A DNA stretch of 41,604 nt. Origin: Candidatus Hadarchaeota archaeon. GTDB taxonomy: Archaea; Hadarchaeota; Hadarchaeia; Hadarchaeales; Hadarchaeaceae. The stretch lies in contig JBFMBF010000010.1 of assembly GCA_040755315.1 (NCBI GenBank), positions 1 through 41,604 on the forward strand, in the 5' to 3' direction. Shown piece by piece: positions 95-2,591 of this stretch (position 1 is its first letter; every line of letters starts with the position of its first letter). The position numbers and the translations under genes are program-made. A model generated the notes under the pieces. It ran no database searches, was not told the origin of the DNA, and saw nothing but the letters and a program-made list of their open reading frames with translations.

Positions 95-127
<33 letters not shown>

Positions 128-539
128 GACACATGTTGCCTTAACAAAATCTGGCTGTATGCTGGGAAACCTGAGAATCCCGCACTACCCATCGAATACT
201 TTCGGAGACCTCTCTAGAAAAGAGGTTTTAGAACAGTGGGATTCAGATAATGGGTGACAATGTGACGGGTGCAGGCAATCAGCAGGAAAGGCTAGACGCC
301 GCTTGGATAGTTGGTTTCGTCGATGGAGAAGGATGTCCTTACGAAGGAAGGGCTCCACAAAATAGTTGAGCTAGCTTCTGAGATGAACAGACGAACCAAA
401 AGGTATTGCATCTAGAATCCTCAGAGACTGTACGCCAGATGCCTTCAAAAGGCAAAGATACAGTCCGACCTCCACAGCGATGTGGAGAGGCTGGCAGAAA
501 TGACCAGCCCGCCTTTGAAAGGAGGTAGCAACAAAAGTG
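128..539 (+). mobile_element. Group I self-splicing intron (IB-like) in 23S rRNA at E. coli-equivalent L1931
   Basis: Removing 128-539 restores CTTAAGGT|AGCG. 5' exon ends in U127 and intron ends in G539. IGS GCCTTAA (138-144) pairs with exon TTAAGGT. P3 ATCTGGC(149-155)/GCCAGAT(434-440); P/Q ATGCTGG...AATCAGCAG; R TCAGAGACTGTA and S AAGATACAGTCC form P7; P8 and P9 hairpins present. Confidence 0.93.
250..415 (+). pseudogene. Degenerate intron-encoded LAGLIDADG homing endonuclease (internal deletion plus frameshift)
   Basis: ATG250 reads MGDNVTGAGNQQERLDAAWIVGFVDGEGC (LAGLIDADG motif), then stops at 367-369. The +1 frame from 338 reads LTKEGLHKIVELASEMNR, which resembles the C-terminal helix of single-motif LAGLIDADG enzymes. 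Confidence 0.82.
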
Positions 540-1206: not shown

Positions 1207-1589
1207 ATGCTATCTTTCGGGGGTGTTTGGTGCCTGAGGGAAAGGCGTCCCTAGTACGAGAGGAACAGGATGCCGGCGCCTCTAGTTTACCGGCTGTCCG
1301 ACAGGGCAGGCCGGGTAGCCACGCGCTGGTTGATAAGGCCTGAAAGCATCTAAGGCCGAAGCAATCCCTAAAAATAGGCACCATTCCAGAGGCCCGCAAG
1401 GGTCTCTGGTGAAGGGCAGGGGCTAGAAGACCCCGTTGATAGGCCGGGGGTGTAAGCACGAAGCTTCGGCGACGTGTTCAGCCCACCGGTACTAACAGTC
1501 CAAAGTTTTCCATTGTCTGACAGGCGCTGGGACGACCCATGCACGGCGTCACTTTTACACGCGATTTAAATTTACAAAAAAAGGAACCA

Positions 1590-2591
1590 TTACTTTTCTT
1601 CCGCGGCTTCGTGCGCGTGCTCGGCTTCTCTGTGGTCGACCTCTCTCAGGAGTTCCTTCACGCGTTTGATAAGGTCTTGCTCGTTGTTTGACCTAGCCAT
1701 CTCATGGACGTCTGAAAAGAGGCCGTCCTGAATCCTTGCCATCCATGCCACATACTGGCTGTTTTCCACGTCATATCCCACGAGCACTCCACTGACAACT
1801 TTGCCCTCCTGAAGCTTCCAGAACTGGGCTGGCAGCTCTGGGTCTGTTATGACGCGGGACCACCCTAGGGGCCACCACCCCGTAAGCGAGAACTTCATCC
1901 CTTTTGCCTTGACCTTCAGGGCCTCGTAGTTCACCTTCTCCTCTTTGTGGAACTCCAAGCGCCTGGAGACCTTCTCAAGCTGCTCCTGCGGCTTTGCGGA
2001 AATTTGCGGGACTATCGTGGGCCTGCTGGCGATTGGGGCCTTTACACCCGCTGAGCGAGGCACTATAGATGCATACTTTTCCTTGGGGCCAGCGTCCTCT
2101 GGTTTCACCAAACCTGAGGGGATGATTGAAGGTACTGGCTTGGTCGGGGCCGAGGAAAAAATGGCCACAGTTTTTGGAACCAACCCCTCGGAAGTTGCAG
2201 GTTTTTCAACCGGGCCGACACCGCCTCCGCCAATTGCAAGTGTGTCCCTTCTGACGATCAATGGTGTCTCCCAGGAATGCTTGGCCTCAGTGATTTTCAC
2301 TGGCCCGGCCTTTGCCACGGCTTTCGGAGCTCTGGTCGGGGCTACACCTGGTTTGGGAATTGTAAAAGGACGCAGCTCAAGCGATGGTTTGGCAACCGGC
2401 TTGGGCGGCGGGGCCCAGGTCAAAAAAATAACTCCCGCAACAAGCGGCAGCAGCATGACGGAAAACAGCAGGAGGCCGCTCTGCTCCGAAGCCGATTTTG
2501 CCTGCATTGAAAGCCAGAACAGGACGAACTCCACTGAAATTACTCCAGCCATCGCCAAATTTATTACTCGCAAGATTCCACAAACTATCAT
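1590..2591 (-). CDS. Hypothetical membrane protein (two N-terminal hydrophobic segments, long Pro/Lys/Ser-rich linker, C-terminal globular domain)
   Basis: 333-aa ORF filling the gap between the rRNA and the ferredoxin; T-run terminator-like sequence downstream on the minus strand; no family recognised; start uncertain. Confidence 0.7.
   Translation of the reverse strand: MIVCGILRVINLAMAGVISVEFVLFWLSMQAKSASEQSGLLLFSVMLLPLVAGVIFLTWAPPPKPVAKPSLELRPFTIPKPGVAPTRAPKAVAKAGPVKITEAKHSWETPLIVRRDTLAIGGGGVGPVEKPATSEGLVPKTVAIFSSAPTKPVPSIIPSGLVKPEDAGPKEKYASIVPRSAGVKAPIASRPTIVPQISAKPQEQLEKVSRRLEFHKEEKVNYEALKVKAKGMKFSLTGWWPLGWSRVITDPELPAQFWKLQEGKVVSGVLVGYDVENSQYVAWMARIQDGLFSDVHEMARSNNEQDLIKRVKELLREVDHREAEHAHEAAEEK

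Follow-up and report, generated by a model that had tools for sequence, protein, structure and literature searches.

A Group I Intron in a Hadarchaeota 23S rRNA Gene with a Putative Host-Matched Promoter for Its Deleted Endonuclease

Introduction

How, and at what time, is a protein gene expressed that lies inside an intron of a ribosomal RNA gene? The question is raised by a 412-nucleotide (nt) insert in the 23S rRNA gene of an archaeon of the uncultured phylum Hadarchaeota. The insert lies in a stretch of 41,604 nt, hereafter the window (contig JBFMBF010000010.1, assembly GCA_040755315.1). In the available text of the literature examined, the expression and timing of protein genes within archaeal rRNA introns are unaddressed.

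The intron as such is a further member of a family catalogued in 2018, when 39 archaeal group I introns were described, those at position 1931 of the large subunit (LSU/1931) all being assigned to class IB4 in Table 1 (Nawrocki, Jones, and Eddy 2018; PMC6125680). It shares with them the site, the host gene, the group I core, and an association with LAGLIDADG endonucleases (ORFs occur in 21 of the 39 introns), and differs from the ORF-bearing introns in that its endonuclease is deleted. No L1931 intron stands under the label Hadarchaeota in that table, and the accessible text of the catalogue describes neither internal promoters nor host regulatory boxes. The original prediction for this DNA had presented an archaeal group I intron at L1931 as an unusual find; the intron is indeed there, but the surprise is not, since L1931 is the commonest site of the catalogue (15 of 39).

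Results

The Interrupted 23S rRNA Gene

The insert occupies positions 128-539 of the window on the plus strand, as do all features described below unless stated otherwise, and lies between CUUAAGGU and AGCG, its terminal nucleotide being G539. The interrupted host gene is an archaeal 23S rRNA gene, matched by RF02540 with 1034.7 bits and a gap of 413 nt at the insert. Alignment to this model and comparison with Escherichia coli delimit a fragment of the 5' exon at 1-127, which begins at the contig start and includes H69, and a 3' exon at 540-1515, whose first five nucleotides (540-544) form the 3' strand of P10. The gap and the E. coli comparison agree that the insert stands just after H69 and splits conserved 23S sequence after U1931 (nt 127), as had been predicted. 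Counted from the 3' end of the E. coli 23S record, the matching U is at a distance of 973 nt, which makes it U1931 in the standard numbering over a length of 2904 nt, and U1925 by the record's own annotation of 2898 nt.

The SecY protein encoded in the window shares 96% identity with one attributed to Candidatus Hadarchaeota, and its other best matches that bear a name are Hadarchaeales. The assembly (1.21 Mb, 86.6% complete) is fragmented, and the contig breaks 127 nt upstream of the intron; neither the 5' part of the 23S rRNA gene nor a 16S rRNA gene was found in it. Because the interrupted gene is the sole 23S copy in the assembly, the earlier inference that the intron must still splice is sound. 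Among public sequencing runs, the highest share of query words in any run was 0.21. The genome encodes a tRNA splicing endonuclease and the ligase RtcB, the latter on the intron's own contig (window 23963-25444). No 5S rRNA follows the 23S rRNA gene in window 1516-1590, and the next gene (1590-2591, minus strand) encodes a proline-rich protein of 333 amino acids without a Pfam family.

Structure of the Ribozyme

A covariance-model search, the check proposed along with the prediction, gave a match of RF00028 to window 118-487 with 53.6 bits (E = 8e-12), above the cut-off of 50; when the whole genome was searched, only the 3' half of the intron scored, with 27.1 bits, under the cut-off. Together with the helices and a core tree (see below), this match places 128-539 as a group I intron at L1931, within the clade that carries endonucleases in L6. 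The helices can be followed from end to end. P1 (121-127/138-144) has the pair U127.G138 at the 5' splice site, and the segment 133-144 comprises the 5' strand of P10 (133-137) and the internal guide sequence (138-144), of which G138 pairs with U127; P10 (133-137/540-544) contains two G.U pairs. The 5' strands of P3 (149-155), P4 (160-165), and P5 (170-173) occupy 149-173. At 272-296 lie the 3' strands of P5 (272-275) and P4 (279-284) and the 5' strands of P6 (285-287) and P6a (292-296), and at 411-466 the 3' strands of P6a (411-415) and P6 (418-420), the 5' strand of P7 (424-430), the 3' strand of P3 (434-440), P8 (440-445/449-454), and the 3' strand of P7 (461-466). Three predicted hairpins of the P9 domain (470-487, 489-509, and 511-526) lead up to the terminal G539. 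The U.G pair, P1, P10, P3, P7, and omega-G539 were thus where the original prediction had put them, and P4, P5, P6, P6a, P8, and the three P9 hairpins are added here, making the fold complete.

Two of the predicted helices are refined. P7 is at its predicted place, but its conserved part consists of G424-C466, a bulged A425, and 426-430/461-465; the last two pairs of the helix as predicted do form here, but are kept in only 47 of 76 and 69 of 76 relatives. P3 likewise stands at 149-155/434-440, but just 14 of 75 relatives keep its first pair. G426-C465 is presumably the guanosine-binding pair. Among the 75 of 96 distinct L1931 introns that could be parsed, pairs in P3, P4, P6, and P7 covary well above column shuffles, the fourth pair of P3 being kept in 74 of 75 introns (34.7 when shuffled) and the last pair of P7 in 70 of 75 (36.3 when shuffled), figures that are uncorrected for kinship.

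A bulge-helix-bulge (BHB) structure is absent from the junctions, where the central helix would have one of four pairs, the intron stem none of five, and the exon stem two of five. The RF00028 match, the complete core, and this absence bear out the assignment to group I rather than to the BHB class. The insert has the structure of an L1931-family group I ribozyme, and as such it would remove itself from pre-23S rRNA.

A Deleted Endonuclease Gene in L6

The original prediction was right about the features of the intron, but left out both an endonuclease remnant and a promoter module. The remnant, in L6, is that of a single-motif LAGLIDADG gene. With 46 intact L1931 endonucleases as the basis of a profile, matches were obtained to an N-terminal piece at 250-342 (37.7 bits; 19 of 22 residues identical to an intact relative) and a C-terminal piece at 326-403 (18.8 bits; 14 of 23 identical); a Pfam scan of these two short remnants returned no family. 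The N-terminal remnant (250-336, profile positions 7-37) overlaps P5, P4, and P6, and retains the LAGLIDADG helix with its acidic catalytic residue, the motif lying at 313-333. The C-terminal remnant (338-415, profile positions 131-156) is in another frame. Between them, at the deletion junction, stands a single base (337) where five intact relatives have 98 codons. With these codons missing and the frame shifted, there is no complete domain of approximately 150-160 amino acids in one frame, and the N-terminal reading continues out of frame until a stop codon at 367-369. Candidate in-frame starts are ATG250 and GTG262, and the usual ATG position, 265, reads ACG.

As a mobile element the intron is defunct; that both pieces are still well conserved suggests a recent loss of the endonuclease. 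Partial losses of the endonuclease are common in the family (L167 is an example), and an endonuclease frame is lacking in many relatives of 250-360 nt. In four archaeal L1931 introns (L156, L158, L161, and L169) the gene appears by eye to have been replaced by unrelated, short, AT-rich frames in L6.

A Putative Promoter Module within the P5 Extension

When the intron was compared with its own genome by BLAST, only the stretch near 193-221 matched, at several unlinked intergenic places. This stretch lies in the variable hairpin that a P5 extension (179-269) is predicted to form, and contains a 20-bp host promoter box, AATACTTTCGGAGACCTCTC (195-214), that is identical to the box before radA in the same genome; the radA copy lies 76 nt before the gene and shares 21 identical nt with that of the intron. 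The box is followed by a putative BRE, a purine run at 216-221 that stands where the host copies have a run of A, and by an imperfect TATA-like word at 226-233, 31-32 nt after the start of the box, as in the host copies. From the start of the box it is 70 nt to the usual ATG position, 67 nt to GTG262, and 55 nt to ATG250; the TATA-like word is 24 nt before ATG250, the spacing in relatives being 27-30 nt. From base composition, 6.5e-6 such matches would be expected in 412 nt.

At the RNA level the module is predicted to fold. The segment 166-278, which holds the P5 extension, has a predicted folding energy of -36.4 kcal/mol (z = -3.49), with the box pairing to the spacer between the BRE-like run and the TATA-like word, and the 45 nt that begin at the box are predicted to fold at -14.1 kcal/mol, compared with -6.8 to 0 for 13 host copies. 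Since none of the other 98 L1931 intron records contains the box at up to two mismatches, it would have been gained in the lineage of the window's intron.

The Box in Host Genomes

The window's genome (G000) belongs to a set of 66 genomes of the phylum. In this set the box pattern has 227 matches in 39 genomes, as against 2 for the reversed pattern; in three families (f2, f5, and f6) the strict pattern found nothing. With a matrix made from five host sites, the intron copy ranked second of the 15 sites that scored above 22 bits in G000, set off by a gap from the background. The most constant target is radA: of 30 loci, 26 have the box, at up to three mismatches, within 130 nt upstream of the gene, usually at a distance of 71-78 nt, and the reversed control gave none. 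Other genes behind the box encode RPA, a Rad51 paralogue, DUF763, MCM (approximately 256 nt from the box, behind a small ORF), TnpB, and free LAGLIDADG proteins. A frame approximately 213 nt from the box, also behind a small ORF, has no Pfam match and is one that we take to be NurA-like. No Pfam family was assigned to 7 of 12 and 6 of 19 of the genes behind the box in the two protein sets scanned. A TATA-like word accompanies 24 of 43 box copies, and 21 of these words, that of the intron included, start 30-34 nt after the start of the box.

The fourteen other box copies of the window's genome, spread over ten contigs, outline a candidate regulon of repair and replication, to which belong several free LAGLIDADG-HTH genes, often in a broken state, as well as a conserved protein of 271-273 amino acids without a Pfam family. 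Most genomes of the phylum have two RadA-like genes (in G000 at C5:12930-13868 and C25:8262-9188), the second of which lies directly behind the RPA gene, which has the box. At five loci of relatives TnpB-like genes stand directly behind the box, three of them with Cas12f1-like Pfam matches, and IS605-type elements may use the same regulon.

Comparison with Archaeal Damage Elements

A 20-bp consensus has been described for damage-induced promoters of Saccharolobus islandicus that depend on Orc1-2, its ANTTTC core being required for induction and bound by Orc1-2 (Sun et al. 2018; PMC6061795, in the available text). The intron box agrees with it at 17 of 20 positions, the consensus being from another phylum, and the two elements are alike in containing ANTTTC and in standing upstream of a BRE and a TATA box. 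They differ in their targets: radA and RPA are the clearest for the Hadarchaeota box, whereas the best-tested Sulfolobus targets named in that text are upsA, upsE, tfb3, and cedA1, and not radA. The accessible text of the literature on the Orc1-2 element mentions no intron (PMC6061795, PMC9738581, PMC12490963). In Halobacterium, a UV-B motif with an ACTTTC core lies approximately 50 nt upstream of radA1, with a near-match before a transposase gene; as described in the available text (PMC2556686), this motif is an 11-bp tandem, lacks the 3' half of the Hadarchaeota box, and lies outside introns.

The genome has two Orc1 paralogues. The second, at most a candidate Orc1-2 orthologue, scores 163 bits to 1FNN, 157-160 bits to Orc1-1 types, and 78 bits to ORC2 of A. 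pernix. The Sulfolobus gene is autoregulated; before this paralogue, by contrast, no box was found at up to four mismatches in 30 loci. Families f2 and f5, which gave no match to the strict box pattern, have the paralogue as well. The box resembles a DNA-damage-responsive element (DDRE) and may also act as one, but it is no more than a candidate member of an Orc1-2 regulon.

Promoter Signals in Other rRNA Introns

In 230,050 bases of fetched loci, the box occurs inside one rRNA insert. This 705-nt insert in the 16S rRNA gene of another genome of the phylum (G022) is placed near site 908, has junctions that read by eye as BHB, and carries the box, which again lies in a hairpin and stands 68 nt ahead of a LAGLIDADG gene with a frameshift. 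The same 16S locus contains a group I-like insert with a LAGLIDADG_2 frame (L314:966-1709) beside the BHB-type insert with the box, whose frameshifted gene is of the LAGLIDADG_3 type (1860-2570), and the 23S rRNA gene of G022 (L025) has two further inserts near H69. The box is absent from nine introns at L1923, from the introns of L311, L316, and L025, and from an intact L1931 intron (L173). It is a minority feature: most rRNA-intron endonucleases of the phylum are without it.

Three L1931 introns of other hosts carry a different signal. In these (L058, L114, and L036), CACTGGACA lies 52-54 nt before the endonuclease ATG. Combined with a TATA word, this sequence has 31 distinct sites in genome G070 and 12 in G071 (raw counts 45 and 15, controls 2 and 0), and none in G000, G073, or G074; the 10-nt pattern alone is weak in G070 (12, control 7) and becomes clear once the TATA word is added. 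Genes behind it encode MCM, a Cas4-like nuclease, ribonucleotide reductase, and three free LAGLIDADG proteins. It was not found directly before radA in G070, G071, or G073, the first two having been scanned up to 330 nt upstream, and G072, the genome of the L036 intron, has only two exact matches. Judged by its distribution, CACTGGACA is a genome-wide promoter motif in the two testable hosts.

A more general signal is the TATA-like word itself. Among 15 archaeal-type introns with an endonuclease in L6, which are related to one another and hence not independent, 12 have it 27-30 nt upstream of the ATG (1.7 expected by shuffling). At the same spacing it is found in 3 of 18 introns without a gene (1.5 expected) and, unlike in the archaeal type, in none of five bacterial introns of the L6 type. 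Two Planctomycetota records (L038 and L044) and the window's own intron were excluded from this count.

Distribution and Origin of the Intron

A pattern scan of GTDB genomes returned at least 120 L1931-type loci from both domains, and an archaeal-type pattern 22 metagenome loci; among the matches listed, complete introns were obtained from 98 records, giving 96 distinct introns with the window's own. Within the phylum the pattern search found an L1931 intron only in the window's genome (1 of 66), a search that misses G051, where the 3' half of such an intron is cut by a contig end. Of the 26 other 23S loci of the phylum that were fetched, 25 have no insert at the site, among them that of a genome of the same genus (G001). 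A core tree of 92 rows, with four rows skipped and the bootstrap unsettled, separates a group of almost exclusively bacterial introns from a clade (100/99) in which archaeal and bacterial ones are mixed; the latter holds the window's intron, for which the tree gives no supported sister. L173, a metagenome contig with an exon 88% identical to the window's, carries an intact L1931 intron whose sister in the tree comes from a host only 72% identical.

This patchy occupancy and the grouping of the L173 intron across distant hosts make horizontal movement likely. The original prediction had proposed horizontal acquisition, with bacterial and organellar introns as the relatives to compare. A gain is supported by the patchiness; a bacterial or organellar donor gets no support from the mixed clade, and the 17 closest endonucleases among the matches listed, L076 first, are all from hosts with archaeal-type exons. 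Insertions in CPR-bacterial genes for 23S rRNA at 1931 share the site and the endonuclease family, single-motif LAGLIDADG_1, and the word promoter is absent from the main text of the paper that describes them, as far as that text was available (PMC11270868).

Host labels are unsafe in several cases, the bin label conflicting with the type of the 23S exon in L036, L041, and L065; L036 has an archaeal-type exon in a bin labelled bacterial, and the opposite mismatch also occurs among the three. Elsewhere in the region of H69, eight of 26 23S loci of the phylum have a group I-type intron of approximately 830-870 nt at L1923, with a two-motif LAGLIDADG frame of approximately 215-235 amino acids. 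Two other loci (L023 and L316) have a single-motif frame at site 1923, and in the H69 loop of G046 (L016) there is a hairpin insert of approximately 25 nt that is probably a small BHB intron.

Discussion

We propose that the endonucleases of archaeal rRNA introns are expressed from promoters inside the intron that match the repair regulons of the hosts, a reading based on sequence comparison to which we assign a probability of roughly 0.68. At the RNA level, the intron would leave pre-23S rRNA by two guanosine-initiated transesterifications. At the DNA level, it would have arrived by homing, with an intact single-motif LAGLIDADG gene in L6 of which the remnant is still present. Because an rRNA precursor is a poor message, that gene would have had its own promoter, formed in P5's variable hairpin by the box, the BRE-like run, and the TATA-like word. 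In this lineage the same box stands before radA, RPA, and further genes for repair, replication, and mobile nucleases, and it resembles the damage element of Sulfolobus; through this shared box, the endonuclease was probably made together with the recombination proteins needed for homing. Whether it was truly induced by damage we regard as a matter of even odds. Since homing needs the host recombinase and a second copy of the DNA, a nuclease made while the repair genes are on would succeed more often and do less harm. A later deletion of 293 nt would have killed the endonuclease and left the copy immobile, its promoter a relic that serves as an RNA hairpin.

The box could instead be a real host promoter element for replication, the cell cycle, or DNA metabolism in general, which the intron used just for expression. 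The genes for MCM and RPA behind the box, the lack of a box before the second Orc1, and the exclusion of radA from the best-tested Sulfolobus targets (PMC6061795, available text) speak for this. We nevertheless consider it rather unlikely, given the 17-of-20 match to a consensus whose core is necessary for damage induction, the constancy of radA as a target, and the Halobacterium UV motif, which has the same ACTTTC core and precedes radA1 and a transposase gene (PMC2556686, available text). Nor is it probable that the box is a passenger, copied from a host promoter or the end of a mobile element, kept for folding, and never a driver of the endonuclease. Such an origin would suit the 21-nt identity to the radA box of the same genome, the frequency of the box before TnpB and free endonuclease genes, and the predicted stability of its fold relative to the host copies; the orientation, the TATA spacing, and the 70 nt to the usual start are, however, those of host promoters, and the arrangement recurs in the other intron class and, with another box, in other hosts.

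Other doubts concern the ribozyme and the assembly. The intron may have the structure of group I and yet need a protein helper, be it a chaperone of the host or, in the past, its own endonuclease in the role of a maturase: long insertions in P5 and L6 could slow folding, and the available text of the 2018 catalogue describes no archaeal splicing test (PMC6125680). The intact core, the deletion of the endonuclease in the sole assembled 23S copy, and the many relatives of 250-360 nt without an endonuclease frame make such dependence improbable. That the deletion is an assembly error, the organism having an intact gene, is more doubtful still. The fragmented assembly, the contig break 127 nt upstream, and the conservation of both remnants would fit an error, but the usual start has also changed, to ACG, its C pairing with G182 in a predicted stem, and partial losses as in L167 are common in the family. 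That the insert is instead a BHB intron, removed by the tRNA splicing endonuclease with RtcB as the ligase, has hardly any likelihood: the genome encodes both enzymes, but the junctions form no BHB and the group I core is complete.

The proposed promoter would be the new part, a host-matched promoter within an intron of a known family. The endonuclease of the phage T4 td intron, I-TevI, belongs to the GIY-YIG family. It is served by a late promoter inside the intron, and in having an internal promoter for its endonuclease gene the td intron is like the window's; the T4 case, as given in the available text, involves a phage late promoter, autorepression, and a protein-coding host gene, and no host repair-regulon box in rRNA (PMC3943268). 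A literature search that covered few subscription journals found no host damage box in an rRNA intron, no intron-internal archaeal promoter, and no damage-regulated intron endonuclease.

A wider form of our proposal is that introns of both classes, group I and BHB, use promoters hidden in hairpins and repeatedly acquire the damage box of each host, so that cutting is on together with RadA and RPA, and that an Orc1-2-type regulon spans the distance from Sulfolobales to Hadarchaeota; this we hold tentatively, a little short of an even chance. The findings nevertheless offer a concrete and testable answer to the question of expression and timing, an internal promoter with a host repair box, and they add, for this uncultured phylum, a candidate damage element of 20 bp. 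They suggest that introns tie their spread to the repair response of the host. If this is true, a selfish element times its double-strand break to the recombination machinery of the host, and in Sulfolobus-like systems to DNA exchange as well, and re-tunes this timing in each new host.
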